From assembly GCA_944371905.1 (NCBI GenBank), contig CALVYA010000006.1, forward strand, positions 5,358 through 69,357: DNA of 64,000 nt, written 5' to 3'. Below, one piece after another: positions 2,972-60,552 of this stretch (positions within the stretch are counted from its first letter, which is position 1; every line of letters begins with the position of its first letter). This DNA comes from an uncultured Bacilli bacterium. GTDB lineage: Bacteria; Bacillota_I; Bacilli_A; RF39; UBA660. A model generated the notes under the pieces. It searched no databases. It was not told the origin of the DNA and was given only the letters and a program-made list of their open reading frames with translations. Both the position numbers and the translations under genes were made by a program.

Positions 2972-3003
2972 TCTCCTTCCGCCATGATTTAATCAATCAT
3001 AGT
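2972..3003 (-). promoter_or_regulatory. Possible rpmE leader hairpin (L31 autoregulatory element)
   Basis: Minus strand CTATGATT...AATCATGG stem directly before the GGAAGGAG RBS. Confidence 0.35.
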
Positions 3004-29529: not shown

Positions 29530-29745
29530 AAAATAAAACACAGATAAAACCTCCTTAAGGACGAAATATCCGTGTTACCACCTTAATTCATAGAAAAACT
29601 ATGCACTCAATACATTAACGCTGTCAACGTATTAGCCTACATATCGACTAATAAGACTAAGGAACCATCTTCTGTAATACTTACACTTTTTCCACCAACC
29701 AAAGCTCTCTATTATAAGTTAGTTACATCTCTTTCCCTCAAAGTC
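29530..29745 (-). promoter_or_regulatory. T-box riboswitch with Met (AUG) specifier
   Basis: Minus strand: stem I AGAGAG and GGTGGAA motifs, specifier loop GAAG-ATG-G (29668-29666), T-box AAGGTGGTAACACG (29584-29571), terminator CACGGATA/TATCTGTG plus U-tract. Confidence 0.88.
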
Positions 29746-29781
29746 ATAATAAATATGTATTTTATTATAACATCATTATTC

Positions 29782-35077: not shown

Positions 35078-35923
35078 CTATTCACATCCTTTATGATATT
35101 CTTTATAAATATCTGATTTTGTCGTTTTTCTATCGCGAGCTACTAATTTCATAGCTTCTTTTTCGCTATATCCTAAATTAATATAATTTTTAATATGATC
35201 TATTATACTAATATTATCATAATTAGAATTATCCTTATTACCTTCCACTATTATGACAAATTCTCCTTTTATTTCGCCTGTTAATTCATTTATCACTACA
35301 TCTATTTTACCTCGATATATTTCTTCATATATTTTAGATATTTCTCTACTTATCGATATTTTTCTATTACCAAATATTTTTTTTAAAGATTTTAAGGTAT
35401 CCATTATTCGATGAGGAGATTCATAAAAAATTAAAGTATATTTAAAATCTTTTAATTCTTCCAACTCTTTTTCTAATTTAGATGTCTTAGAATTTAAAAA
35501 CCCATAAAATAGAAAATGATTCGATTCAATACCAGATGTTATTAAAGCTGGGATCAAAGCTGTAGCACCAGGTAAACCAATAACATTATGACCTTTATCT
35601 ACAACATATTCTACTGTTTTATAACCTGGATCACTAATAATTGGTGTCCCTCTATCAGTAATAATTCCAACATCATATCCTTGATCCAAACAGGTTAAGA
35701 TTTTTTCTTTTACCACATTTTCATTAATATTATTACAGCTAATTAATTTTTTCTTAATATTTAATTGATTTAATAATAATTTAGCTACTCTAGTATCTTC
35801 ACAAAAAATTATCTCTACTTGTTTTAAAATATTTATTGATCTTAATGTTATATCTTCCAAATTTCCTATAGGAGTTGGAATTAAATATAGTGCATTTTTA
35901 CCACTATAACTTTTTTGACTCAT
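35078..35923 (-). CDS. rsmI: 16S rRNA C1402 2'-O-methyltransferase
   Basis: TPIGNLEDIT, CEDTR, GTPIISDPG, YESPHR. Confidence 0.95.
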   Translation of the reverse strand: MSQKSYSGKNALYLIPTPIGNLEDITLRSINILKQVEIIFCEDTRVAKLLLNQLNIKKKLISCNNINENVVKEKILTCLDQGYDVGIITDRGTPIISDPGYKTVEYVVDKGHNVIGLPGATALIPALITSGIESNHFLFYGFLNSKTSKLEKELEELKDFKYTLIFYESPHRIMDTLKSLKKIFGNRKISISREISKIYEEIYRGKIDVVINELTGEIKGEFVIIVEGNKDNSNYDNISIIDHIKNYINLGYSEKEAMKLVARDRKTTKSDIYKEYHKGCE

Positions 35924-39386: not shown

Positions 39387-41012
39387 TTATTTTATCTCTA
39401 TATCAACTGAATCAAACAGTTCATATATTTTATTATCAATAATTTCTTGATCTTTCCTAACTTCCTTTTTAGAATTATTATCAGTTAATACAATGTATTT
39501 ATCATCTATAATATTATATTTTTCATTATTATTCAATTTTTTTATATATTCAGTTCTTGCTTCATTCCATTCTGAATCTGAAATTGCTACTATATGATAG
39601 TTTAATTGCAAATAATCATTTAAAATCTTTTCTATTTTCTTATATTCTTCATTCAATTTATCTGCAAGGGACGAATAAAGATAATCTATAACTACATATT
39701 CATTACTTGCTACTACCGGAGATCCATCTAACAAATTACATATAATAGCACCATTTTCTTTATCAAAAGCATAATTTTTCAATTCTAACCATTTATTTTT
39801 TATATTATTTAAAAATTCTTTATTAGCATTAACAAAAGTATTATTGATTCTAATAGTTTTAAAATCGGCGTTTGAAAATTTATTTGTTTCTTTCAAATTT
39901 TCTTCTTTTACTATGGTATCATTTTCTAGTTTAATAGGATCAACACATTGCTCTTCTGTCTTTTTTTCAGAAAATATTTCCCGGGAAATATTTTCTATAT
40001 TATTCGCTATATCTAATAAACCCACTTCAAAAATTATTTTTTTACTAACAGAACTACTTTTCATTTTGTCATATATCTTGATCATTTCAGATAGTAAATC
40101 TTGCAATTCTTTATTTCTATCTTTCTTAATAAAAATTCTATCATCCAATTCTTTTATAATATCTTCTACTATATAAATTAAATCATAGTTATTTTGATAT
40201 AATGTATTCACTCGATCAATAGAATTGATAATATCTTTTGAAAGTATTAGATCAATCAGTGAAATAATCTCTTTTTTTGAAGGTTTATCACACACTGTTC
40301 TAACATCTTCCAATTCTATTTTGCTATTACAATAAGAATTAATTTTTTCTAATAAACTCAAAGCATCACGCATACATCCGTCAGAGGAAGAAATAATTTC
40401 ATCTATTGCTTCATTCGAAATTTCTATTTTTTCTTTATCACATATTTCTATAATTCTATTTTTCATATCGATAGAAGATATTTTTTTAAATTCTAGAACT
40501 TGACATCTAGACAATATAGTAGATGGTACTTTCTGAATCTCTGTTGTAGCTAATATAAATATAACATGAGATGGAGGCTCTTCTAATGTCTTTAACAAGG
40601 CATTAAAAGCGCCAATAGATAACATATGTACCTCATCAATAATATAAATTTTATATTTTAAAAAAGAAGGAACAATATTAATTTTACTTTTTAACTCTCT
40701 TATTTCATCGACTCCATTATTAGAAGCAGCATCAACTTCAATAATATCTACACATTCTTTTGACGAGGAATTAAGACACGAATCACATTGATTACAAGGA
40801 TTCAAATTGATTAAATTTTCACAATTAATTGTTCGAGCAAATATCTTAGCAATACTTGTTTTTCCAGTTCCCCTTGGTCCAGTAAATAAATATGCATGCG
40901 AAATATTATTATTATTAATAGCATTTTTTAAAATCGTAGTTATTACTTTCTGACCAGAAACTTCATCAAAATTAAAAGGTCTATATTTTCTATATATTGC
41001 TAGATGACTCAT
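39387..41012 (-). CDS. dnaX: DNA polymerase III gamma/tau
   Basis: YRKYRP, GPRGTGKT, DAASN, DEVH, SRC. Confidence 0.96.
   Translation of the reverse strand: MSHLAIYRKYRPFNFDEVSGQKVITTILKNAINNNNISHAYLFTGPRGTGKTSIAKIFARTINCENLINLNPCNQCDSCLNSSSKECVDIIEVDAASNNGVDEIRELKSKINIVPSFLKYKIYIIDEVHMLSIGAFNALLKTLEEPPSHVIFILATTEIQKVPSTILSRCQVLEFKKISSIDMKNRIIEICDKEKIEISNEAIDEIISSSDGCMRDALSLLEKINSYCNSKIELEDVRTVCDKPSKKEIISLIDLILSKDIINSIDRVNTLYQNNYDLIYIVEDIIKELDDRIFIKKDRNKELQDLLSEMIKIYDKMKSSSVSKKIIFEVGLLDIANNIENISREIFSEKKTEEQCVDPIKLENDTIVKEENLKETNKFSNADFKTIRINNTFVNANKEFLNNIKNKWLELKNYAFDKENGAIICNLLDGSPVVASNEYVVIDYLYSSLADKLNEEYKKIEKILNDYLQLNYHIVAISDSEWNEARTEYIKKLNNNEKYNIIDDKYIVLTDNNSKKEVRKDQEIIDNKIYELFDSVDIEIK
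39969..39996. promoter_or_regulatory. Noc-binding site (NBS) inside dnaX
   Basis: 28-bp perfect palindrome AGAAAATATTTCCCGGGAAATATTTTCT containing the NBS consensus ATTTCCCGGGAAAT. Confidence 0.85.
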
Positions 41013-41094
41013 TCAAATCCCTCCATAAATATTGTAACACAAATCACTAGTGCAATAAAGGTTTATTTTATGGTTATAATGATAAAACCTACGC

Positions 41095-41118
41095 AAAATA
41101 TTTCCCGGGAAATATTTT
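41095..41118. promoter_or_regulatory. Noc-binding site
   Basis: AAAATATTTCCCGGGAAATATTTT perfect palindrome. Confidence 0.88.
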
Positions 41119-41486
41119 ATCGAACAAAAATACGAACATTTTTATAAAAAAATAAAATACAATTTATAGAGAAAATATAAAAAATCTTTCAATCAAATGA
41201 AAATTTTTAAAAATGACATTTCTTATAAATTTAAAAGATATTATAGATAAAAAATAACAAACAAATCATTTGTTTAAACATATGTTTTTTTTTACTATTA
41301 ATCAATAACCTTAAGTCATACTTTATTGTATAAATATTATGATTATACATACAAAAATCAAAATTCTAAATGAATTTATTTTATTAATTCTTCCTATTTA
41401 ATATCTTGTATTTATTTTTATATTTTTTCACAATACAATTAAAATATTATCAATCATTTCATAAAATATTTTTATTATTAAACTAA

Positions 41487-41514
41487 ATAAAATATTTCCC
41501 GGGAAATATTTTAT
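41487..41514. promoter_or_regulatory. Noc-binding site
   Basis: ATAAAATATTTCCCGGGAAATATTTTAT perfect palindrome. Confidence 0.88.
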
Positions 41515-41587
41515 CAAACAAAAATACGTTCTTTTGTTTTGCTTTACCATTAACTTTGTTTAAACAAGATCTAACATTTAAAATTTT

Positions 41588-41603
41588 TGTTTCACGTGAA
41601 ACA
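41588..41603. promoter_or_regulatory. parS: parS site
   Basis: TGTTTCACGTGAAACA, exact consensus. Confidence 0.93.
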
Positions 41604-41748
41604 TAGTAGTTTTTAATATAGTTTTTTTAATTTACTGATATAAAATAACAATTATATTCTATATTTCAACAATTTCGTATTGTTAATTTATTTAAAAGTT
41701 TTCTATCACATCACTTTGGCTATTTTTTAATATGCAACCTTGCTTTAA

Positions 41749-41764
41749 CGTTTCACGTGAAACA
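41749..41764. promoter_or_regulatory. parS: parS site
   Basis: CGTTTCACGTGAAACA, one mismatch. Confidence 0.9.
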
Positions 41765-41853
41765 TCAAAATATTGTTATCTTTAATATATATTATTCTAC
41801 TAATTTATTTATATAAAGTAATAATTAAAATTTATATTTTAATAGTATTTACA

Positions 41854-41881
41854 AAAAAATATTTCCCGGGAAATATTTTTT
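41854..41881. promoter_or_regulatory. Noc-binding site
   Basis: AAAAAATATTTCCCGGGAAATATTTTTT perfect palindrome. Confidence 0.88.
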
Positions 41882-41915
41882 GTAATATTACTTTATTAGA
41901 TAATTTTATAAAAAA

Positions 41916-41931
41916 TGTTTCACGTGAAACA
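41916..41931. promoter_or_regulatory. parS: parS site
   Basis: TGTTTCACGTGAAACA, exact consensus. Confidence 0.93.
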
Positions 41932-41938
41932 TAATATA

Positions 41939-42388
41939 TTATCTTTTATTATTAAAAAATTTTTTTATAATACTTGAACATTCATCAGACATAATGCCTC
42001 TTTCTATTATAACTTGATGGTTATAGTTATTATTTTGTAATATTTGCTCTATTATTTTTCTGTTATCTGTAATATTTGAATCGCATCCATAAATAATTTT
42101 ACTTATTCTTGCCTGTTGAATAGCACTGGCACACATTGGACACGGTTCTAATGTTACATAAATAATGGTATCATTCAGTCTCCAATCTTTTAATTTTGCA
42201 CTTGCTTTTTCAATTGCAATTAATTCTGCATGACGTGTCACTAACTTTTCTTTATCTTTTTGATTATAAGCTGATGCAATTACTACATTATCTTTAACAA
42301 TTACAGCTCCTACTGGTATTTCATCTTCAATATCAGCAAATTTAGCTTGTTCTAAAGCTAATTTCATAAAATACTCGTTATTATACAT
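41939..42388 (-). CDS. tadA: tRNA adenosine deaminase
   Basis: EIPVGAV, HAE, TLEPCPMC; true start MYNNEY after GGAGTG. Confidence 0.92.
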   Translation of the reverse strand: MYNNEYFMKLALEQAKFADIEDEIPVGAVIVKDNVVIASAYNQKDKEKLVTRHAELIAIEKASAKLKDWRLNDTIIYVTLEPCPMCASAIQQARISKIIYGCDSNITDNRKIIEQILQNNNYNHQVIIERGIMSDECSSIIKKFFNNKR

Positions 42389-42407
42389 AATATCACTCCA
42401 TAAAAAA

Positions 42408-42482
42408 TAGCGCACATAAATAGGAATTGTTAAGGCTGCTATCTTCCGATCCTGACCTGGTTCCAATATATTTATTGCGCCA
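42408..42482 (-). ncRNA. ffs: Signal recognition particle RNA (small 4.5S type)
   Basis: Minus strand GCGCA...GAACCAGGTCAGGATCGGAAGATAGCAGC...TGCGC: domain IV with GGAA tetraloop and CAGG/AGCA loop, closing stem and U-tract. Confidence 0.85.
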
Positions 42483-42523
42483 TATATAGATTAATATATT
42501 TTTTTTATTTTTGCAAGTTTAAA

Positions 42524-51339: not shown

Positions 51340-51560
51340 TAATACAAATTCATTTTAACTTATCCTGTTGAAAAAATAAAGTAAAAACCGTAAAAAAAAG
51401 ATATCAACAAGTAATCAACAGAGTTTTCAACAAAAAATGTGCATAAATAATAAGAAAAAAATTACTTTTTCACATTTTCCACAAATTTTTATTCATAACT
51501 ATGAATAATGTTATCCACAAGTATGTTAATTTTGTTGATAACTATTTTTAAAATGAATTG
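51340..51560. other. oriC, rpmH-dnaA DnaA-box cluster
   Basis: Perfect TTATCCACA (51511) plus TTTTCAACA, TGTGCATAA, TTTTCCACA and TGTTGATAA; gene orientation switches here. Confidence 0.85.
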
Positions 51561-52155: not shown

Positions 52156-53074
52156 TAAAATCAAAATAATAATATTAATTTTATTAGTATTATTTTCAAC
52201 AGGATGTACCAAAGTATTAAAAGATCCTGAAGATAAAAAAGCTGTTACTAATCCTACTACAGGTCAAAGTTTAACCGAGAATATATTATGTCAGCCAGAA
52301 GATGAAGAAACTATAAAAGCTTATGAGAAATATAAAGATATTGTAGATATTTCTAAATTGCCAACATGTCAAAATTTTCAAATTAACTCAGGTGGATATG
52401 AAGGATTATGGGATAGTATTTTTGTAAAACCATTAGCTTGGGTAATTATTCAAATAGGTAATTTTGTAAAAAGTTATGGATTATCATTGATTATTACTAG
52501 TTTGTTAATTAGATTAATAGCTTTTCCTATTACTAAGAAAACAGCTATCCAATCAGAATTGATCAGTAAAGCTAAACCAGAGTTAGATAAATTAGAAAAA
52601 AAATACAAAGATAAAACAGATCAAGCTTCGCTTATGAAGAAAAGTCAAGAAATGACTATGATTTATAAGAAATATAACATAAATCCAGTTGCTGGATGTT
52701 TATATGCATTTTTACAGATTCCTTTATTTATAGCATTTTTAGAAGCAATTAACAGAGTGCCAGCAATTTTTGAAGAAAAGTTTATTGGATTTCAATTAGG
52801 AACAACTCCTTTAGTAGGATTACAAAATGATAATTTTATATATATAATTATTATTGTTTTAGTTGGATTATCTACTTACTTCTCATTTAAATTGAATTCA
52901 ACCGCAACCGATATCAACGGTCAATCTAGTATGATTAATAAAGTTATGGTATTAACAATAGTATTTATGTCATTATTCATGTCATCTGCATTAGGCATTT
53001 ATTGGATAACAACAAATCTATTTACTATAGGACAAAATTTATTAGTTAAAAGGAGTAAAGCGTTAAATGGATAA
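52139..53074 (+). CDS. yidC: YidC/SpoIIIJ membrane protein insertase (lipoprotein)
   Basis: Lipobox STGC, INPVAGCL..QIP, LGIYW. Confidence 0.9.
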   Translation: MKKKNNKIKIIILILLVLFSTGCTKVLKDPEDKKAVTNPTTGQSLTENILCQPEDEETIKAYEKYKDIVDISKLPTCQNFQINSGGYEGLWDSIFVKPLAWVIIQIGNFVKSYGLSLIITSLLIRLIAFPITKKTAIQSELISKAKPELDKLEKKYKDKTDQASLMKKSQEMTMIYKKYNINPVAGCLYAFLQIPLFIAFLEAINRVPAIFEEKFIGFQLGTTPLVGLQNDNFIYIIIIVLVGLSTYFSFKLNSTATDINGQSSMINKVMVLTIVFMSLFMSSALGIYWITTNLFTIGQNLLVKRSKALNG

Positions 53075-53675
53075 GTATGTATATAATGGAAAAACAAAAG
53101 AAGAAGCACTAGAAAAAGCATTAAATGATTTAAATGTTTTAGAAAAAGAAGTTTTGATAAAAGACAAAGAACAAAAAGTAGGTTTATTTAAAAATAAGCG
53201 TATTGATTTAGAAGTCATTAAGAAAAATGATATAATTGAAGAATTAAAAAAATTTATAAAAAATATAACTAAATTAATGGGAATTGAAGTAAATATAGAA
53301 CAAAAAATTAGAAACGATGATGTTACTATTACATTATATAGTGATAATAATAATATTCTGATAGGAAAAAATGGACGAACATTAGAAGCAATTAGTATGG
53401 TAGCTAAACAATATATTTATAATGAAACGGGATATAATTTTAGATTTTTATTAGATGTTGGAGAATATAAATTAAAACATCAAAAAAATATTGAATATTT
53501 AGCTAAAAAAATAGCTAAAGAAGTAGCTACTACTAAAATAGAAGCTAAATTAGATCCAATGAATTCATACGAAAGAAGAATTGTTCATAGTGTTTTATCT
53601 GATAATGATAAAGTATATACAGAAAGTATGGGAGAAGAACCAAATAGGGCGGTAGTAATTAAACCAAGAGATTAA
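53067..53675 (+). CDS. jag: Jag/KhpB RNA-binding protein
   Basis: KH motif LIGKNGRTL, R3H motif ERRIVH. Confidence 0.93.
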   Translation: MDKYVYNGKTKEEALEKALNDLNVLEKEVLIKDKEQKVGLFKNKRIDLEVIKKNDIIEELKKFIKNITKLMGIEVNIEQKIRNDDVTITLYSDNNNILIGKNGRTLEAISMVAKQYIYNETGYNFRFLLDVGEYKLKHQKNIEYLAKKIAKEVATTKIEAKLDPMNSYERRIVHSVLSDNDKVYTESMGEEPNRAVVIKPRD

Positions 53676-53752
53676 TATCTCTTTTTTTCTTGAAATACTT
53701 GAAAAAATGATAAATATGTTATAATCTATATAAGCAAAAAAGGGGTGATATC

Positions 53753-55105
53753 ATGAATGATACGATTGCTGCTATATCTACTGCTTTGGGAGTAGGAGCT
53801 ATTTCTATAGTAAGGCTTAGTGGAAAAGATGCTATATCTATTACTAATTCTATTTTTAAAGGAAAAGATTTAAATAATGTTAATAGCCATACTATTAATT
53901 ACGGTCATATCGTTGATAATGATAAAGTGATTGATGAGGTATTAGTTAGTATTATGAGATCACCTAAAACTTATACTTGTGAAGATATAGTTGAAATAAA
54001 TTGTCATGGCGGAATCGCAACTACTAATAAAATTTTGGAGTTGGTTTTATTAAATGGGGCAAGATTAGCAGAGCCTGGAGAATTTACTAAAAGAGCTTTT
54101 TTAAATGGAAGAATCGATTTAATAGAAGCGGAATCTGTTATGGATTTAATTGATGCTAAAACAGAAGAAGCTAGAAAATTGTCTATTAATCAATTGGAAG
54201 GAAAAGTAAGTACTATTATTCGTAATTTTAGACAAAAACTGTTGGAACTTTTAGCTAGTATTGAAGTAAATATAGATTATCCAGAATATGAAGATATTGA
54301 GGTTATTACTAATGAAAACATAAGAAAAGAAATTTCTAATATCAAAGAAGAATTAAATAAAATAATTATGGAGTCTGAAAATGGTAAAATTATAAAAAAA
54401 GGAATTAAAGTTGCAATAGTGGGTCGTCCTAACGTGGGAAAAAGTAGTATTTTAAATAGATTATTAAATGAAGAAAAAGCAATCGTTACGGATATTGAGG
54501 GAACTACAAGAGATATTGTTGAAGGAGAAGTAAGTATTTCAGGAATTCTATTTAGATTTGTTGATACTGCTGGAATCCGAGAAGCAAAAGATTTAGCAGA
54601 AAAAATTGGAATAGAGCGTAGTAAAAATGAAATTTTTAATTCTGATTTAGTTTTAATGGTTTTAAATAATAATGAAAACATAAAAGAAGAAGATAAAAAT
54701 TTGATTAACAAATTACCAAAAAATTCTTTAATTGTTATTAATAAAAATGATTTATGTTCTAATATAGATACTGAATTTTTAAAAGATCGTGATGTTATAT
54801 ATATCGATACAGTCAATATAGATGGTATTGAACCATTAAAGAATAAATTAATTGAGATGTTTAATTTGGAGAAAATAAATAATAGTGACTATACTTATAT
54901 GAGTAATGCTAGACAAATATCTTTAGCAAAGGAAGCCTATAATATAATTAATGATGTAGAATTAGGTTTAAAAAATGAAGTACCAACGGATTTAATAGAA
55001 ATAGATATTAAACGTATATGGGAAAAACTAGGTGAAATATTGGGAGAAAGTTATTCAGAGGAATTAATTGATCAGTTATTTACTCAGTTTTGTCTTGGAA
55101 AATAG
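53753..55105 (+). CDS. mnmE: tRNA modification GTPase
   Basis: GRPNVGKSS, GTTRD, DTAG, FCLGK. Confidence 0.97.
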   Translation: MNDTIAAISTALGVGAISIVRLSGKDAISITNSIFKGKDLNNVNSHTINYGHIVDNDKVIDEVLVSIMRSPKTYTCEDIVEINCHGGIATTNKILELVLLNGARLAEPGEFTKRAFLNGRIDLIEAESVMDLIDAKTEEARKLSINQLEGKVSTIIRNFRQKLLELLASIEVNIDYPEYEDIEVITNENIRKEISNIKEELNKIIMESENGKIIKKGIKVAIVGRPNVGKSSILNRLLNEEKAIVTDIEGTTRDIVEGEVSISGILFRFVDTAGIREAKDLAEKIGIERSKNEIFNSDLVLMVLNNNENIKEEDKNLINKLPKNSLIVINKNDLCSNIDTEFLKDRDVIYIDTVNIDGIEPLKNKLIEMFNLEKINNSDYTYMSNARQISLAKEAYNIINDVELGLKNEVPTDLIEIDIKRIWEKLGEILGESYSEELIDQLFTQFCLGK

Positions 55106-55108
55106 GAA

Positions 55109-56986
55109 GTGATAAATATGAAATTTGATGTTATTGTCGTAGGAGGAGGTCATGCTGGATGTGAAGCTTGTTTAGCATGTGCTAGAAAAAATAAAAAGAC
55201 TCTTCTTATCACTAGTAATAAAGAAAATATTGCGGATATGCCATGTAATCCTTCTATAGGAGGACCAGCTAAAGGTATTGTCGTTCGTGAAATCTCTGCT
55301 TTAGGTGGAGAAATGGCTAATAATATTGATAAAAGTTTTTTGCAAATGAAAATGTTAAATACGAAAAAAGGCCCTGCAGTAAGAGCTTTAAGAGCACAAG
55401 CAGATAAAATAAGTTATAAACAAGAAATGATAAAAACTTTAGAAAGTACTCCAAACTTGACTATTATGGAAGGAATGGTTGAAGATTTAATTATTGAAAA
55501 TAATACTATAAAAGGAATCGTACTAGAGGATAACAGTAAAATTTTTTCTAATTGTGTAATTCTTACTACAGGAACTTATTTAAAAGGAGTTATTTTATAC
55601 GGATCAACTAAAATAGAAAGTGGTCCACATGAGGAAAGACCTTCTAAATTTTTAAGTGATAATTTAAAAAAATTAGGATTTAAAATAAAAAGATTAAAAA
55701 CTGGCACACCTCCTAGAATAGAGAAGAGTAGTATTGATTTTAGCAAAGCTGTTTTACAACCAGGAGATTGTGAAAAACATTATTTTTCTTTCTTTAATAA
55801 TCAAGATTATAATGTAGATGACCAGTTACCTTGTTATTTAATATATACTACTCCATTGACTCATCAAATAATAAAAGAAAACTTATCAAAGTCTAGTATG
55901 TATGGAGGATATGTAGAAGGTATTGGTCCTAGATATTGTCCTTCGATCGAAGATAAAATAGTAAGATTTGCTGATAAAGAACGTCATCAATTATTTTTAG
56001 AACCTGAAAGTATATATTACGACGATATCTACATTCAAGGTTTTTCAACTAGTATGCCACATGATGTTCAAGAAAGAATGGTTCATAGTTTGCCTGGACT
56101 TGAAAATGCAATCATAAATAAATATGCTTATGCTATTGAGTATGATGCAATAGATTCTACACAGTTAAAACCTACTTTGGAGACAAAATTAATAAAAAAT
56201 TTGTATACTGCTGGTCAAATTAATGGTACTAGTGGATATGAAGAAGCTGCATGTCAAGGATTAATGGCCGCTATCAATGTTTGTTTAAAGTTAGATAATA
56301 AGGAACCCTTAATTTTAAAAAGAAATGAAGCTTATATTGGAGTACTTATTGATGATTTAATTACAAAAGGTGTTATTGATCCTTATCGTTTGTTAACATC
56401 ACGAGCTGAATATAGATTATTATTAAGACATGATAATGCTGATTTAAGATTAATGGATTATGGATATCAAGTAGGGTTAATAAGTGAAGAAGATTATCGT
56501 TTATTTTGTGAAAAAAGAGATAGCATTAATAAATTGTTACAAAATTTAAAAAATTATCTTCTAAATCCTACTATAGAAAATAATAAGTTTTTAACTAGCA
56601 TAGGAACTCAAGAAATAGTTACAACGACATCCTTATATGACTTATTAAAAAGACCAGAAATAGAAATTAATCAATTTAAAGATTTGATTGATCTAAACTA
56701 TACTAATGAAGTATTAGAACAAGTGACTATTAATGTTAAATATGAAGGGTACATAAAAAAAGCTAATAAGGAAGCTTTAAAAATGTTAGAATATGAAAAT
56801 ATAAAGATACCAGAGGGGATTGATTATAATTTAGTTCATAATATTGCAAAAGAAGCAAAACAAAAATTAAGCGAAATAAGACCAACTTCTATTGGTCAAG
56901 CTATGAGAATTAGTGGAGTAAATCCTGCTGATATTACTATGTTAATGGTTTATTTGAAAAGGAATAAGGTCAATGAAGAGAGATGA
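55109..56986 (+). CDS. mnmG: tRNA uridine-34 modification enzyme GidA
   Basis: GGGHAGCEA, CNPSIGG, GPRYCPSIEDK, GQINGTSGYEEA. Confidence 0.97.
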   Translation: MINMKFDVIVVGGGHAGCEACLACARKNKKTLLITSNKENIADMPCNPSIGGPAKGIVVREISALGGEMANNIDKSFLQMKMLNTKKGPAVRALRAQADKISYKQEMIKTLESTPNLTIMEGMVEDLIIENNTIKGIVLEDNSKIFSNCVILTTGTYLKGVILYGSTKIESGPHEERPSKFLSDNLKKLGFKIKRLKTGTPPRIEKSSIDFSKAVLQPGDCEKHYFSFFNNQDYNVDDQLPCYLIYTTPLTHQIIKENLSKSSMYGGYVEGIGPRYCPSIEDKIVRFADKERHQLFLEPESIYYDDIYIQGFSTSMPHDVQERMVHSLPGLENAIINKYAYAIEYDAIDSTQLKPTLETKLIKNLYTAGQINGTSGYEEAACQGLMAAINVCLKLDNKEPLILKRNEAYIGVLIDDLITKGVIDPYRLLTSRAEYRLLLRHDNADLRLMDYGYQVGLISEEDYRLFCEKRDSINKLLQNLKNYLLNPTIENNKFLTSIGTQEIVTTTSLYDLLKRPEIEINQFKDLIDLNYTNEVLEQVTINVKYEGYIKKANKEALKMLEYENIKIPEGIDYNLVHNIAKEAKQKLSEIRPTSIGQAMRISGVNPADITMLMVYLKRNKVNEER

Positions 56987-57677
56987 GTTTTTAAAAGAGA
57001 TAGATAAATTAGGTATTACTCTTAATGAGAGACAGCTAAATCAACTAGAGAAGTTTTATAAATTATTAATTGAATGGAATCAAAAAATTAATTTGACAAC
57101 TATTATTTCTGAAGAAGAAGTTTATTTGAAACATTTTTATGATAGTTTGACCTTAGTGAAAGAAATTAATTTAGATCAAAAATTAAAATTATGTGATGTA
57201 GGAAGTGGAGCAGGATTTCCGGGTATAGTTTTAAAAATTTGTTTTCCAAAATTAGAAATAGTTTTAGTTGAAGCACTACAAAAAAGAGTAAACTATTTAA
57301 ATGACATCATAAAAAAAATAGGATTGACTGACATTATAGCGATACATGCTAGAATGGAAGACTTTTCAAGAGTTAATGAAGAAAAATTTGATATGATTAC
57401 AGCAAGAGCGGTAGCTAATCTCAATGTTTTGTTGGAAATAAGTGTAAGAGCCTTAAAAATAAAAGGACAAATGATTTTTATGAAAGCAAATTGTGAAGAA
57501 GAAATTAATCATAGTAGACAAGCTTTAAATAAATTATCTTGTAATATAGTTCATATAAATAAGTTTAAATTGCCCATAGAAAATAGTAAGAGAACAATAA
57601 TTACTGTTGTAAAACAAGAAAAAACAAAGAACATTTATCCAAGAACTATTGATAAAATCAAAAAGAATCCATTGTAA
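56973..57677 (+). CDS. rsmG: 16S rRNA m7G527 methyltransferase
   Basis: KHFYDSL, DVGSGAGFPG, ARAVA. Confidence 0.96.
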   Translation: MKRDEFLKEIDKLGITLNERQLNQLEKFYKLLIEWNQKINLTTIISEEEVYLKHFYDSLTLVKEINLDQKLKLCDVGSGAGFPGIVLKICFPKLEIVLVEALQKRVNYLNDIIKKIGLTDIIAIHARMEDFSRVNEEKFDMITARAVANLNVLLEISVRALKIKGQMIFMKANCEEEINHSRQALNKLSCNIVHINKFKLPIENSKRTIITVVKQEKTKNIYPRTIDKIKKNPL

Positions 57678-57714
57678 AAATATAGTTATGCAAATTATAA
57701 CTATATTTTATTTT
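57677..57714 (+). terminator. Probable terminator between rsmG and noc
   Basis: AAAATATAGTTAT...ATAACTATATTTT inverted repeat. Confidence 0.55.
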
Positions 57715-57795
57715 AATTTTACATTGTAAAATATTGAAAAATATTATATAATTTATTATAAAGTAAGAAAGAATAAAGTAGGAGGGTATAAATAT

Positions 57796-58794
57796 ATGGA
57801 AAATGAAATAGTTTATTTATACTTAGATGATATTATACCTAATAGATTTCAACCTCGTGAAGTTTTTGATGATAAAGCATTAAAAGAATTAGCAGTGTCC
57901 ATTAGAGAACATGGTGTTATTCAACCAATTATTGTTAGAAAAATAGGGACTAAATATGAAATAATTGCAGGAGAACGTCGTTATAAAGCTTCAACTATGG
58001 TAGGATTAACAAAAATTCCAGCTATAATTAGAAATCTTGATGATAAAGAAAGTTCTAAAGTAGCTCTTATTGAAAATTTGCAAAGAAAAGACTTAACTGC
58101 TATAGAAGAAGCAAGAACATATCAAAAAATTTTAGATATTGATAATATGACGCAAGAAGAATTAGCTAAAACTATGGGAAAATCTCAATCTGCGATTTCT
58201 AATAAATTGCGTTTATTAACTTTATCTAACAAAATACAAGACGCTTTATTGAATGAAAAAATATCAGAAAGACATGCTAGAGCTCTATTAAATGTTGATT
58301 CTGAAGAAGAACGTGATAGATTAACTGATTTAATTATTGAAAAACGTCTTTCTGTTAAAGATTTAGAGAATTTAGTAAAAGAAGAACAAAAGAAAAAAGA
58401 TGAGATTAAAACTTCATCGAGTGAAAAAGTAGAAAAAGAAGATACAGTAATTGATAATAGTAAAGTAGAAACTAAAAATAACGAAAATAATTATCCAAGA
58501 ATTAAATTAGATGATCTTTTAAAAGATATTATTAAGGAAGAGGATAAACCTTTAGAAAAAGAAAAAGATTCTGATATAGAAATGTTAGATTTATCAGAAC
58601 CTGATGAAAATTATTATTCTTTTAAAGGATTAAAGGAAGTTACTAACGCTAGTAATAGTATAGATAAATGTATAAATATGATAAGAGATACAATTAAAGA
58701 AATCGAAAACAAAGGATATCAAGTTAAATTTGATGAATTAGATTTAGAAAATAAGCATCGTTTTATTATAGAGATTGAAAAAAGAGAAGAATAA
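57796..58794 (+). CDS. noc: Nucleoid occlusion protein Noc (ParB paralogue) without N-terminal amphipathic helix
   Basis: PNRFQPR, GERR CTPase box, Noc-type HTH GKSQSAISNKLR and ERHARAL; located between rsmG and soj. Confidence 0.85.
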   Translation: MENEIVYLYLDDIIPNRFQPREVFDDKALKELAVSIREHGVIQPIIVRKIGTKYEIIAGERRYKASTMVGLTKIPAIIRNLDDKESSKVALIENLQRKDLTAIEEARTYQKILDIDNMTQEELAKTMGKSQSAISNKLRLLTLSNKIQDALLNEKISERHARALLNVDSEEERDRLTDLIIEKRLSVKDLENLVKEEQKKKDEIKTSSSEKVEKEDTVIDNSKVETKNNENNYPRIKLDDLLKDIIKEEDKPLEKEKDSDIEMLDLSEPDENYYSFKGLKEVTNASNSIDKCINMIRDTIKEIENKGYQVKFDELDLENKHRFIIEIEKREE

Positions 58795-58898
58795 AATAAA
58801 AGGTAGATTTTCTATCTTTTTTTATTGAAAAACATTTAAAAAAGTTATATTTTTTGATAGAATAGTATTTGTCAAGAATTATTGAAAAGGGTGATAGG

Positions 58899-59687
58899 AT
58901 GGGAAAGGTAATTTCTTTGGTAAATCAAAAAGGTGGAGTTGGAAAAACAACGACAAGTATTAATCTTTCAGCATCTTTAGCGGTATTAGGGAAAAATGTA
59001 TTATTAATCGATTTAGATCCTCAAGGAAATACAACGACAGGTATAGGTATTAATAAAGGAGATATCGATAAAAGTATTTATGATGTATTAATTGATCAAT
59101 GTTCAATCAACGAAGCTATTCTTGCCACTAGATATAAGAGATTATTTTTATTACCAGCTACTATCAATTTGGCTGGGATTGATATAGAATTGATGGAAAA
59201 GAGTAAAGATGAACCGACTTTTTCAAAAGGAAAACAATTAAAAATAAAACTAGATACAATAAAAGATAAATATGATTTTGTAATTATTGATTGTCCACCA
59301 TCATTAGGATTGATTACTACTAATGCATTGACAGCTTCAGATTCTGTTATTATTCCTGTTCAATGTGAATTTTTCGCTTTGGAAGGAATTATGCAGTTAT
59401 TGAATACTATTATGATGGCTCAGAAAAATTTAAATCCTAATTTAGATATCGAAGGAGTTTTATTAACTATGTTAGATTCAAGAACTAAATTGGGATTTGA
59501 AGTCGTAGAAGATATTAGGAAGTATTTTAAAGAGCGTGTTTATAATACAATTATTCCTAGATTAATAAGGTTAACAGAAGCTCCATCTCATGGTAAACCA
59601 ATAATTGCTTATGATCCAAAAAGTAAAGGAACAGAAGCTTACTTAAATTTAGCAAAGGAAGTGATTGAAAGAAATGGAAACAACTAA
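58899..59687 (+). CDS. soj: ParA/Soj ATPase
   Basis: NQKGGVGKTT, DLDPQGN, DCPPSLG, EAPSHG. Confidence 0.96.
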   Translation: MGKVISLVNQKGGVGKTTTSINLSASLAVLGKNVLLIDLDPQGNTTTGIGINKGDIDKSIYDVLIDQCSINEAILATRYKRLFLLPATINLAGIDIELMEKSKDEPTFSKGKQLKIKLDTIKDKYDFVIIDCPPSLGLITTNALTASDSVIIPVQCEFFALEGIMQLLNTIMMAQKNLNPNLDIEGVLLTMLDSRTKLGFEVVEDIRKYFKERVYNTIIPRLIRLTEAPSHGKPIIAYDPKSKGTEAYLNLAKEVIERNGNN

Positions 59688-60552
59688 AAGAAGAGCACTT
59701 GGTAAAGGATTAGAAGAATTGTTTAATAATGAGCAGTTAGATTTAAATAAATTTGAGAAACAAATAGTAGAATCAACACCAAAAGAAGAAATAATAGAAG
59801 TTAATATTAGTGATTTAAGACCAAATCCGTATCAACCAAGAAAAGTCTTTGATGAATCCAAATTGAATGAATTAGCTTCTTCTATTAAGGAGCATGGAGT
59901 TTTTCAACCAATAATAATTAAAAAAAGTGTTAAGGGATATGAAATAATTGCAGGAGAACGTCGTGTTAAAGCATCGGGTATAGCAGGGTTAGAAAAAATT
60001 CCTGCTATTGTTAGAAGTTTTACTGATGAAGAAATGATGGAAATAGCTCTACTTGAAAATTTGCAAAGAGAAAATTTAAATTCTATAGAAGAGGCAACAG
60101 CATATAAAAAGTTATTAGACAATTTATCTATTACACAGGAAGAGCTAGCTAATAAGTTAGGAAAAAGTAGAAGTCACATTACCAATATGTTAGGATTATT
60201 GTCATTACCTTCTGAAATTAAAGATATGATTAGTGAAAATAAAATTTCAATGAGTCATGCCAGAGTGCTAAGTAAAATTGAGGAAAAAGATAAAATATTA
60301 TCTTTAGCACAAAAAATAATAGATGAAAACTTAAATGTTAGAGAATTAGAAGAATTATCAAAAGATAAAGAAATCGTGAAAAAACATCATATGGAAAAGC
60401 ATAAAAATAATGAATATCATTATTTGGAAGAACAATTATGTGATAGGTTAGGCACAAAAGTAAAAATTAAATCTAATAAAATAGAAATTAAATTTAGTAA
60501 TGTTAACGATTTAAATAGAATATTAGAAATTTTAAGATTAACGGAAGAATAA
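59674..60552 (+). CDS. spo0J: ParB/Spo0J
   Basis: ALGKGL ParA-stimulating peptide, GERR, HTH GKSRSHITN. Confidence 0.95.
   Translation: METTKRRALGKGLEELFNNEQLDLNKFEKQIVESTPKEEIIEVNISDLRPNPYQPRKVFDESKLNELASSIKEHGVFQPIIIKKSVKGYEIIAGERRVKASGIAGLEKIPAIVRSFTDEEMMEIALLENLQRENLNSIEEATAYKKLLDNLSITQEELANKLGKSRSHITNMLGLLSLPSEIKDMISENKISMSHARVLSKIEEKDKILSLAQKIIDENLNVRELEELSKDKEIVKKHHMEKHKNNEYHYLEEQLCDRLGTKVKIKSNKIEIKFSNVNDLNRILEILRLTEE

Follow-up and report, generated by a model that had tools for sequence, protein, structure and literature searches.

The uncultured Bacilli bacterium studied here carries all of the Noc-binding sites (NBS) and parS sites detected at 0–1 mismatch in its whole assembly, four NBS and three parS cores, within 1.96 kb of DNA close to the replication origin. 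In the window (the whole stretch of 64,000 nucleotides that was analysed), three of the four NBS and all three parS lie in a single AT-rich non-coding island between dnaX and tadA, which we read as the chromosome's centromere. With a probability of roughly 60%, this island would be one centromere serving two orthogonal CTP clamps, in which Noc has shifted from chromosome-wide nucleoid occlusion to a role in the origin domain.

A mixed cluster of NBS and parS near oriC

The sites and genes of the system were located in the window as follows:

39976–39989, no strand: NBS 4, inside dnaX, where it is read as I-S-R-E-I
41013–41938, no strand: AT-rich non-coding island of 926 bp without a long ORF, holding the mixed NBS/parS cluster
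41100–41113, no strand: NBS 1, exact 14-mer within a 24-bp palindrome (41095–41118)
41494–41507, no strand: NBS 2, exact
41588–41603, no strand: parS 1, exact 16-mer
41749–41764, no strand: parS 2, one mismatch at the outermost base, 14-bp core exact
41861–41874, no strand: NBS 3, exact
41916–41931, no strand: parS 3, exact 16-mer
42393–42491, minus strand: SRP RNA gene, next to the island and outside the NBS/parS system
51438–51541, no strand: cluster of DnaA boxes, located between dnaA and rnpA and interpreted as oriC
57796–58794, plus strand: Noc-derived ParB paralogue of 332 aa, assigned from domain matches, structure search, alignment and an AlphaFold model
58869–59687, plus strand: Soj/ParA ATPase, the true start being probably the Met at residue 11 of the ORF
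59665–60552, plus strand: ParB/Spo0J of 295 aa, with an N-terminal ParA-contact peptide, parS-type residues and ParB_C

The island is bordered by dnaX (39387–41012, minus strand) and tadA (from 41939, minus strand). The very AT-rich 926-bp gap between these genes, described in the original prediction, was borne out, with a G+C content of 16.8% over 41150–42049 compared to 27.4% genome-wide. The exact NBS ATTTCCCGGGAAAT was found at 41100, 41494 and 41861, and again at 39976 within dnaX, while parS occurred as TGTTTCACGTGAAACA at 41588 and 41916 and as CGTTTCACGTGAAACA at 41749. All six sites previously placed in the gap were confirmed, the positions first given for them being the starts of longer palindromes, and one 22-bp palindrome was common to all four NBS. 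In shuffled sequences the expectation was 0.19 NBS matches at ≤2 mismatches, with five matches reached in none of 100 shuffles, and 0.04 matches for parS. NBS 1 and NBS 2 each lie in a copy of a 56-nt direct repeat (41086–41141 and 41480–41535) with 86% identity.

Two other identities of the island were considered. A hidden RNA gene was rejected: the Rfam search of the island returned no family match (one microRNA-family match at E 0.27 was noise), the tRNA search found none there, and the SRP RNA gene next door was the sole find. The island was also rejected as oriC itself, since no sequence in it matches a DnaA box with ≤1 mismatch and the boxes and the GC-skew turn were found at 51438–51541. 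Four of the DnaA-box matches lie inside these 104 bp, and the GC skew turns at ~51.0–51.5 kb. The distance from the island to oriC is 9.5–10.5 kb, which is origin-proximal as had been claimed, although slightly more than the 8–10 kb first estimated. The three parS are 9.5–10 kb from the DnaA-box cluster, as in a clustered near-oriC parS centromere.

The assembly scanned comprised 1,294,023 bases in 43 contigs and was 93.6% complete. The four NBS spanned less than 1.9 kb, and the reversed control patterns gave no match at 0–1 mismatch. At this level the whole-assembly scan agreed with the earlier statements that the sole extra NBS lies inside dnaX and that the window contains no other parS. Allowing two mismatches added five NBS-like sites on four contigs, compared to one for the reversed control, and weak NBS-like sites may be dispersed elsewhere in the assembly. 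In a complete chromosome of 1.52 Mb, scanned at ≤1 mismatch for parS and ≤2 mismatches for NBS, seven NBS and six parS were found in total. All six parS and six of the seven NBS formed a strictly alternating 126-bp tandem array, and the seventh NBS lay 6.7 kb from the array, all seven being within 7.3 kb. In another genome, assembled in four contigs, the island held all three NBS (≤2 mismatches) and all four parS cores.

The NBS inside dnaX coincides with a conserved peptide. The seven residues NISREIF were invariant in the eight genus DnaX proteins checked, with varying flanking residues. CGG makes up 0.8% of the Arg codons and TCC 4.1% of the Ser codons, and the chance of the dnaX residues being spelled as an exact NBS was 1.6e-4. 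This NBS is evidently kept by selection at the DNA level. Among the NBS examined outside islands, 10 of 11 were at recurrent spots of the origin region, namely in dnaX, in or beside an rsmI-like gene, and in spacers adjoining mnmE.

A Noc-type protein without the N-terminal helix

The gene order at 56973–60552 is rsmG-noc-soj-parB, with the flanking names taken from ORF order and profile matches; this position beside oriC speaks for orthology with noc by synteny. The protein at 57796–58794 starts with a ParB N-terminal CTP domain, followed by a helix-turn-helix (HTH) that bears NBS-type residues, then a disordered linker and finally a C-terminal domain of small size. Its ParB_N match reached 119.8 bits, and a KorB-domain match in the HTH was weak and under the Pfam cut-off. 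The closest solved structures were those of Noc (207 and 188 bits), compared to 127–170 bits for chromosomal ParB/Spo0J chains. The NCBIfam Noc model TIGR04285 matched over profile positions 2–213 of 255 with 287.2 bits, below its cut-off of 315.

Noc Q173, K179 and R201 have their counterparts in Q131, K137 and R159, which were invariant in 43 homologues, in line with the original proposal that this protein binds the NBS palindrome. The fourth specificity position is T142 and not Lys (Noc K184), so that three of the four residues match; in the published variants described in a passage of PMC7383237, NBS binding requires a Lys at only one of the positions 179 and 184. The Q-K-x-R signature was present in 23 of 25 family genomes. 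One family genome had Q-T-T-R, without Lys, yet kept three NBS. The paralogue of a family genome that was 81% complete read E-K-S-G; no exact NBS was found in that genome, and no replacement palindrome was seen in the 695 bp up to the contig end. The counterparts of Noc R89 and N121 are R62 in the GERR box and N94 in the ENLQR box, both likewise invariant in 43 homologues. According to passages of PMC8429893, Noc R89 and N121 are required for CTP binding, and Noc lacking its first 10 residues retains CTP binding and the engagement of its N-terminal domains.

The N-terminal amphipathic membrane-targeting helix (Noc aa 1–10/15) is absent. Residue 3 of the protein aligns with Noc residue 28, and the AlphaFold model opens directly with a strand at residues 5–9. 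In all lineage homologues checked (72/72), the first conserved strand was preceded by 0–19 residues, and stop codons were located immediately further upstream. In B. subtilis, deletion of this helix abolishes Noc function, as stated in a section of PMC4331003. Because there is no membrane-targeting helix and the sites lie only around the origin, chromosome-wide membrane-tethered nucleoid occlusion would be impossible, and judging from the sequences Noc in the host family probably does another job than in textbook bacteria.

The lineage proteins are 322–612 aa long, owing to their long disordered linker. In the protein studied here, a linker helix at 238–250 was predicted with low confidence. 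It overlaps an amphipathic segment at 237–247 (moment 0.76) that is net neutral, contains three acidic residues and is poorly conserved, and that could contact the membrane or a partner. A complex prediction of linker 215–265 with a Soj dimer and ATP, run without controls, gave scores of 0.00 and 0.00 compared to a mark of 0.34 and speaks neither for nor against docking.

The protein at 59665–60552 matched all of the Pfam domains ParB_N, HTH_ParB and ParB_C. Its signature, R-M-S-S, was read by eye from the translation against the alignment of Noc and the 57796 protein, with parS-type residues defined as Arg at 173 and no Arg at 201. The signature alignments gave R-T-S-G, R-I-R-G, R-M-R-G and R-T-K-A for the ParBs of relatives. 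FtsZ and SMC were present, and MinD gave no match above the cut-off in one family search of the 93.6%-complete assembly.

Conservation of the cluster among relatives

The host family consists of small-genome gut bacteria, and its organisms are known solely as metagenome bins. NBS and parS occurred together in the gyrA-tadA-dnaX spacers of 18 of 25 host-family genomes, representing 10 of 17 genera. The other seven of the 25 had parS-only arrays, with their few NBS located 1.7–7 kb off or on another contig. When 185,579 species genomes were scanned with a composite pattern, the mixed cluster was found in gyrA-tadA-dnaX spacers at 78 of 80 loci. The island is conserved in relatives, as the original prediction supposed, and the interleaving it described is widespread in the family without being found in every genome.

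Exact NBS were found in 22 of 24 family relatives compared to 1 of 16 genomes of other families, and the reversed NBS control gave 0 in all 41 genomes scanned. A wider sample covered 149 family genomes in 86 genera; 128 of these genomes and 77 of the genera had exact NBS, 21 genomes had none, and the reversed control was 0 in all 151 genomes. Rather than dozens of NBS spread genome-wide, there were four here and 0–10 in each of the 149 family genomes.

The unit sizes of the arrays were 66, about 115, 126 and 207 bp, depending on the genus. Because the unit sizes differ between genera, the arrays must have been rebuilt repeatedly, with both sites kept each time. Tandem duplication of a unit that contains both sites gives interleaving automatically, and the close spacing itself therefore need not be selected. 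No preferred NBS-parS spacing was found across genera (range 17–200 bp). Bracketing of parS arrays by NBS was rejected on 52 complete islands: in the first 17, NBS stood at both ends in 10 and parS at both ends in none, and in all 52 the ends were NBS and NBS in 8, NBS and parS in 24, and parS and parS in 20, compared to 5.6, 27 and 19.4 in shuffles.

Three Bacilli from outside the family with a QK-R Noc-type protein had 13–19 degenerate NBS-like sites and no exact NBS. Their proteins had a longer N-terminus, with 20–45 residues ahead of the first conserved motif; an amphipathic or hydrophobic N-terminal stretch was seen in G038 and G032, and G029 had 20 residues only and no such peak. The NBS-like sites were located on 14 contigs in G032 and on 11 contigs in G029, and in G038 they were spread along a single 2.4-Mb contig, where the control count was 11. 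A quick maximum-likelihood tree was computed from 30 rows of Noc-like proteins and ParBs. The family proteins grouped together in it (SH-aLRT 97) and the base was not resolved; the interleaved state needed at least four changes on this tree.

Possible roles of the second clamp and known systems

If one centromere serves two clamps, ParB (59665–60552) would load at the parS sites and the Noc-derived paralogue (57796–58794) at the NBS mixed among them, and both clamps would close on DNA with CTP and slide over the same origin-proximal ~10–20 kb. Within the origin/partition nucleoprotein complex, the Noc-like protein would be a second component next to ParB, with which it would mark or organise the origin domain. 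We infer this pairing of proteins with sites, the CTP-dependent sliding, the overlap of both complexes and the cell's gain from it. The original prediction had proposed a two-clamp co-loading platform distinct from classical nucleoid occlusion; the predicted sites are indeed few, clustered and conserved, although the platform is not present in every relative, and the origin-anchoring version of the proposal was weakened. It is possible, if doubtful, that the Noc-derived protein has given up its role as a membrane tether, serves the partition complex as a second subunit with a structural role and loads between the ParB loading sites. Its disordered linker with the short amphipathic helix would then recruit or condense something that ParB does not, the candidate targets being the Soj ATPase, SMC or the division machinery. 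In a variant, the layout may preserve, or have returned to, an early stage of the parB-to-noc duplication, in which new sites would have arisen via a few mutations inside a parS array before the membrane helix and the scattered sites.

The Noc-like protein might instead control FtsZ ring placement from one origin-proximal cluster, as a minimal form of nucleoid occlusion or division timing. No Z ring would then form over unsegregated origins, following the logic of an origin-tethered inhibitor and not of chromosome-scattered sites. FtsZ is present without a MinD match above cut-off, so another division-site cue would be needed; the MinD result, however, comes from the one family search of an incomplete assembly. 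An excerpt of PMC6852036 describes a joint block of premature mid-cell Z rings by Spo0J and Noc in B. subtilis, few sites may suffice for a 1.3-Mb genome, and the amphipathic segment of the predicted linker helix could substitute for the lost N-terminal helix. However, every one of the 72 homologues checked lacks the helix on which division inhibition depends in B. subtilis, the charge, low helix confidence and poor conservation of the linker segment argue against such a substitution, and the Noc-like protein showed no part known to contact FtsZ. We consider this explanation unlikely.

Local regulation is improbable. By that account, the NBS-bound Noc-like protein would be a barrier shaping ParB spread or SMC loading, or would repress the dnaX, tadA and gyrBA promoters in the manner of KorB. 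SMC is present, one genus has NBS 60–110 bp upstream of the dnaX start, and NBS and parS can be as close as 17–27 bp centre to centre, so that bound dimers would abut. NBS were nevertheless found inside dnaX, an rsmI-like gene and ebfC and in spacers that vary between genera, which fits loading sites better than operators, and they did not preferentially flank parS arrays in the 52 complete islands. The promoter scan of the island gave 16 promoter-like matches, no more than the 17.6 in shuffles, and the accompanying terminator scan gave none. Even less probable by far is that the palindromes are not Noc sites at all and were carried along by tandem duplication, are bound by another protein, or are of the restriction type, with the core CCCGGG. 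This hexamer is rare, with 10 copies in the genome, and much of the local pattern can be attributed to tandem duplication. The conserved unit, however, is the full 14–22-bp NBS and not the hexamer; exact sites persist across the 149-genome sample at 27% G+C with a control of 0; the NBS in dnaX is retained where DnaX is otherwise variable and although codon usage disfavours it; and in the 81%-complete family genome with the E-K-S-G paralogue no exact NBS was found.

A full-text literature search, with supplementary files and subscription journals outside its scope, returned no description of co-clustered NBS and parS or of a helix-less Noc. KorB is a clamp of the ParB family that depends on CTP and has a repressor function. 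The Noc-like protein resembles it as a ParB-family clamp with a job beyond segregation, but a partner repressor and operator-like placement were not found here. The likeness to MipZ-ParB of Caulobacter is one of logic only: under the division-timing explanation, a cell lacking Min would use the origin-proximal centromere to position a division-related factor. MipZ, a ParA-like ATPase, binds to ParB, whereas the Noc-like protein is itself a ParB paralogue with predicted DNA sites; the two show no relationship in sequence. The parS array near oriC and the ParB domains look canonical for a ParABS system (ParB/Spo0J-parS, Soj). Unlike in ParABS, the centromere here also bears predicted sites of a second, orthogonal clamp, and all parS lie in one array instead of several sites across the origin region.

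Noc is the textbook ParB paralogue with a new job, defined by scattered sites and a CTP-controlled membrane helix. The whole host family, as sampled in 149 species genomes of 86 genera, is without the scattered sites and without the membrane helix, and the Noc-like protein, its site specificity and its CTP residues are nonetheless under strong constraint. The family is thus a natural experiment on the function of a Noc clamp deprived of its membrane anchor, and a natural substrate for how two orthogonal CTP clamps share DNA, whether by independent loading, mutual block or a joint complex. Position and similarity alone are insufficient for annotating such genes as nucleoid occlusion proteins. 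The system shares with the Noc-NBS system of Bacillus subtilis and Staphylococcus aureus the gene position rsmG-noc-soj-parB, the NBS core and the residues for site specificity (Q, K and R) and for CTP binding, and solved Noc proteins are its best structural relatives. It differs from theirs in a protein that has lost the N-terminal membrane-targeting helix, carries a long disordered linker and scores under the NCBIfam Noc cut-off, and in NBS that are confined near the origin, four within 1.9 kb, where classical Noc has many sites scattered across the half to two-thirds of the chromosome nearest the origin.

NBS and parS interleave in one spacer near the origin

The island, an AT-rich spacer between dnaX and a tadA-type deaminase gene, contained three exact 14-bp cores of the Noc-binding site (NBS) and three copies of parS, and a fourth exact NBS was located inside dnaX.

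Features of the island and its flanks
39387-41012, minus strand: dnaX, flanking the island
39976: fourth exact NBS, inside dnaX
41013-41938: spacer (island) between dnaX and the tadA-type deaminase gene
41100, 41494 and 41861: exact 14-bp NBS core, three copies within the island
41588, 41749 and 41916: parS, three copies within the island
41939 onward, minus strand: tadA-type deaminase gene, flanking the island
42393-42491: SRP RNA, adjoining the island, outside the spacer

The chance expectation from dinucleotide-preserving shuffles, allowing up to two mismatches, was 0.19 NBS and 0.04 parS. The pattern search against these shuffles confirmed the three NBS and three parS named in the original prediction, and its single extra NBS in dnaX proved to be an exact match. 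The middle parS copy had one mismatch, at the outermost base, and all four NBS shared one 22-bp palindrome. The predicted very AT-rich gap was recovered as a G+C content of 16.8% over 41150-42049, compared with 27.4% for the genome. The genes gyrA and gyrB lay beyond tadA, with recR and ebfC on the opposite side of the island. Four DnaA-box matches at 51438-51541 and a GC-skew turn at ~51.0-51.5 kb place the island 9.5-10.5 kb from oriC, so the predicted near-origin placement held while the proposed distance of 8-10 kb was revised. Rfam and tRNA searches of the spacer returned no Rfam family and no tRNA.

Several smaller features were observed in the window. A 56-nt direct repeat (86% identical; 41086-41141 and 41480-41535) carried the first two NBS and extended ~28 nt past the palindrome on one side, where no known motif was found; the third NBS lacked the repeat. 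The tadA ORF (41939-42491, 175 aa, TTG start) overlapped the SRP RNA gene, but its deaminase domain does not begin until residue 28; the true start therefore probably lies inside the called ORF, which would make the overlap an ORF-calling artefact. The SRP RNA lies upstream of tadA here, instead of between tadA and dnaX as we take to be the case in B. subtilis. Rfam also identified, at gathering score, an ordinary T-box leader (29554-29750, minus strand) and an ordinary L31 ribosomal-protein leader (2973-3002, minus strand).

The whole assembly (1,294,023 bases, 43 contigs, 93.6% complete) contained four NBS and three parS cores at 0-1 mismatch, all of them the sites in the window, while reversed control patterns gave no matches at this threshold. 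At 0-1 mismatch, genome-wide scanning found no spread of NBS and no parS outside the island. At two mismatches, five further NBS-like sites were found on four contigs versus one for the control, and a few weak NBS-like sites may exist elsewhere in the assembly. This is the opposite of the pattern in B. subtilis, where, according to the accessible text of one study, NBS are widespread except near the terminus and parS is limited to the origin region (PMC7383237).

Conservation of the mixed cluster and of its NBS

Related records were deposited as metagenome bins of uncultured Bacilli, Tenericutes or Mollicutes, a small number of them under Candidatus names, and belong to what we take to be the lineage usually called RF39. 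In a first sample of 40 relatives, exact NBS were present in 22 of 24 genomes from the same family versus one of 16 from other families, and the reversed NBS control had no match in these or the window's own genome (0 of 41). The exact parS core was found in 15 of the 24 family genomes, and one-mismatch variants in others. A wider, even sampling of the order recovered at least one exact NBS in 128 of 149 family genomes (0-10 per genome), and the control pattern matched in none of 151 genomes.

Sites and flanking genes were mapped in regions fetched from 25 family genomes. NBS and parS occurred together in the gyrA-tadA and/or tadA-dnaX spacers of 18 of the 25, representing 10 of 17 genera. All genomes but one are draft bins, and the relatives are not independent samples. 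The spacer held only parS in the other seven (G009, G010, G011, G013, G014, G016, G017), each with 0-2 NBS, at a distance of 1.7-7 kb or on a separate contig. The complete circular chromosome (1,517,539 bases) carried six strictly alternating NBS/parS pairs in a 126-bp tandem unit and one further NBS 6.7 kb from the array; the rest of the chromosome, searched with one mismatch allowed for parS and two for NBS, had neither site. An independent scan for NBS followed by parS 33-63 bases on, covering 185,579 species with a single genome per species, yielded at least 119 matching stretches. All 80 matches listed came from bins of uncultured organisms; Bacilli, Tenericutes, Mycoplasma and Erysipelotrichaceae were the usual labels, beside a few odd ones. 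In 78 of the 80, homologues of gyrA, tadA or dnaX lay no more than 1.5 kb from the cluster, and the largest arrays held 13 NBS and 12 parS. The arrangement may also occur outside this lineage. The island is therefore conserved in relatives, a check that the original prediction had named.

Array units differed in size between genera (66, about 115, 126 and 207 bp), which means that arrays were rebuilt repeatedly with both sites kept each time. The NBS inside dnaX was always translated I-S-R-E-I, and the seven residues around it were invariant in eight genus members while their neighbours varied freely. The exact site requires CGG for Arg (0.8% of its codons) and TCC for Ser (4.1%), a spelling with a probability of 1.6e-4 from codon usage alone. 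Together, the rebuilt arrays, invariant residues and rare-codon spelling show that NBS are under selection as DNA; that they are non-functional or foreign palindromes is extremely improbable.

Of 11 non-island NBS examined in six other genomes, 10 fell in recurrent spots, namely dnaX, the rsmI-like methylase gene or its adjacent spacer, and, across oriC, the spacers on both sides of mnmE. These spots confine the family's NBS to ~17 kb either side of the origin. The exact NBS in the rsmI-like tetrapyrrole-methylase gene, always I-S-R-E-I within a conserved protein motif, recurred across several genera, one of the genomes belonging to another family (relatives' rows L141:1348, L142:1223, L139:1416, L140:693, L097:2566, L267:2032, L275:2010); the window's own rsmI-like gene (35078-35923) had none. 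Other genera had a single NBS in the jag-mnmE or mnmE-mnmG spacer, on the opposite side of oriC from the island (L266, L268, L270, L272, L276), and no NBS was found in the window's jag-mnmE-mnmG region (53067-56986).

ParB and the Noc-like protein

The genome encodes two ParB_N proteins, in the classical gene order rsmG, noc, soj, parB. The product of 59665-60552, with an N-terminal ParA-contact peptide, ParB_N, HTH_ParB and ParB_C domains and parS-type residues in its translation read against the Noc alignment, is an ordinary ParB. The 57796-58794 protein (332 aa) is most similar to solved Noc proteins. It scored 207 and 188 bits against these and 127-170 bits against chromosomal ParB/Spo0J chains, and 287 bits on the NCBIfam Noc model, under the cut-off of 315. 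At the Noc positions Q173, K179, K184 and R201 the protein reads Q, K, T and R. In the part of the source available, these four positions switch ParB from parS to NBS, a single lysine at 179 or 184 being sufficient (PMC7383237). The Q, K and R were invariant in 43 homologues, as were the equivalents of Noc R89 and N121, described as required for CTP binding in the accessible text of PMC8429893. The one family genome with an E-K-S-G paralogue had no exact NBS (assembly 81% complete), but a genome with a Q-T-T-R paralogue kept three, so the rule drawn from these residues has exceptions.

Residue 3 of the Noc-like protein aligned with Noc residue 28. Only 0-19 residues preceded the first conserved strand in 72 lineage homologues (none in 26), with stop codons directly upstream of their starts, and the first element of the AlphaFold model (mean pLDDT 75.6) was a strand at 5-9. 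Excerpts of PMC4331003 describe residues 1-10/15 of B. subtilis Noc as a highly conserved amphipathic helix, predicted in every homologue then examined, whose deletion abolishes membrane binding and function. Noc without its N-terminus retains CTP binding and closure of the N-terminal domains, as far as the available text of PMC8429893 reports, so a natural helix-less Noc can remain a DNA clamp.

The linker was poorly conserved and disordered at 210-233 and 247-286, whole-protein length ranged from 322 to 612 aa across the lineage, and the small C-terminal domain comprised a helix and two strands. A linker helix at 238-250, predicted with low confidence in the AlphaFold model, overlaps the linker's only semi-conserved motif; segment 237-247, the most amphipathic of the linker (moment 0.76), has three acidic residues and no net charge. 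Longer homologues (L003-L082) have three short semi-conserved motifs in the region of residues 196-290. The window's protein retains one of them, at about 236-245, coinciding with the low-confidence helix, and its core resembles the ParA-contact peptide at the N-terminus of the genome's own ParB.

In three Bacilli of other families (G038, G032, G029) the N-terminus of the Noc-type (QK-R) protein is longer, with 20-45 residues ahead of the first conserved motif. This stretch was amphipathic or hydrophobic in G038 and G032, while the 20 residues of G029 had no such peak. None of these genomes had an exact NBS, and the degenerate NBS-like sites numbered 13-19 per genome, lying on 14 contigs in G032, on 11 in G029 and along a single 2.4-Mb contig in G038, where the control count was 11 and many sites may therefore be chance matches.

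A second ParB paralogue without N-terminal extension was also observed in neighbouring reduced lineages (G037, row L143; G025, row L145) and in family member G011 (L131), with specificity positions P-K-K-R, E-K-D-G and E-K-S-G, respectively. In G025 a different perfect 14-bp palindrome occurs twice between the dnaX and ebfC matches (L135:1793, 2027). These paralogues and the palindrome may represent further divergence of site specificity. A second ParA/MinD-like frame in the window's assembly (G000:C1:77658-78446) reached 44 bits with the MinD model, short of its cut-off, and contained one in-frame TAG.

Proposed role and comparison with Noc

The layout of the sites and its conservation are direct observations. 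Judging from residues and co-occurrence, parS would be the loading site of ParB and NBS that of the Noc-derived clamp, all inside one stretch of a few hundred base pairs; in the presence of CTP, the two clamps would slide outward over the same origin-proximal region, where their overlap could benefit the cell. Nucleoid occlusion is accepted to work by tethering the bulk chromosome to the membrane. Lacking both the membrane helix and sites outside the origin region, the Noc-like protein should be unable to provide such tethering, which points to a second component of the origin/partition complex (probability about 0.6).

A reduced form of division control, exerted from the origin, would agree with the presence of FtsZ, the lack of any MinD above its cut-off in the assembly (93.6% complete) and the known cooperation of Spo0J and Noc in Z-ring timing; we consider it unlikely. 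That the NBS-bound protein forms a local barrier or acts as a repressor is improbable, since NBS sit inside genes and a bracketing test, in which NBS would flank the parS arrays, failed; the NBS placement, which extends into genes, is more in keeping with loading sites than with operators.

Our literature search, with supplements and subscription journals outside its range, found no paper on NBS clustered with parS or on a helix-less Noc. Sharing locus, site and reading residues with Noc, the 57796 gene is, as judged from its sequence, a noc orthologue by descent. However, its product scores below the cut-off of the curated Noc model and, with neither the membrane helix nor the scattered sites that help to define Noc, should not be annotated as a nucleoid occlusion protein.
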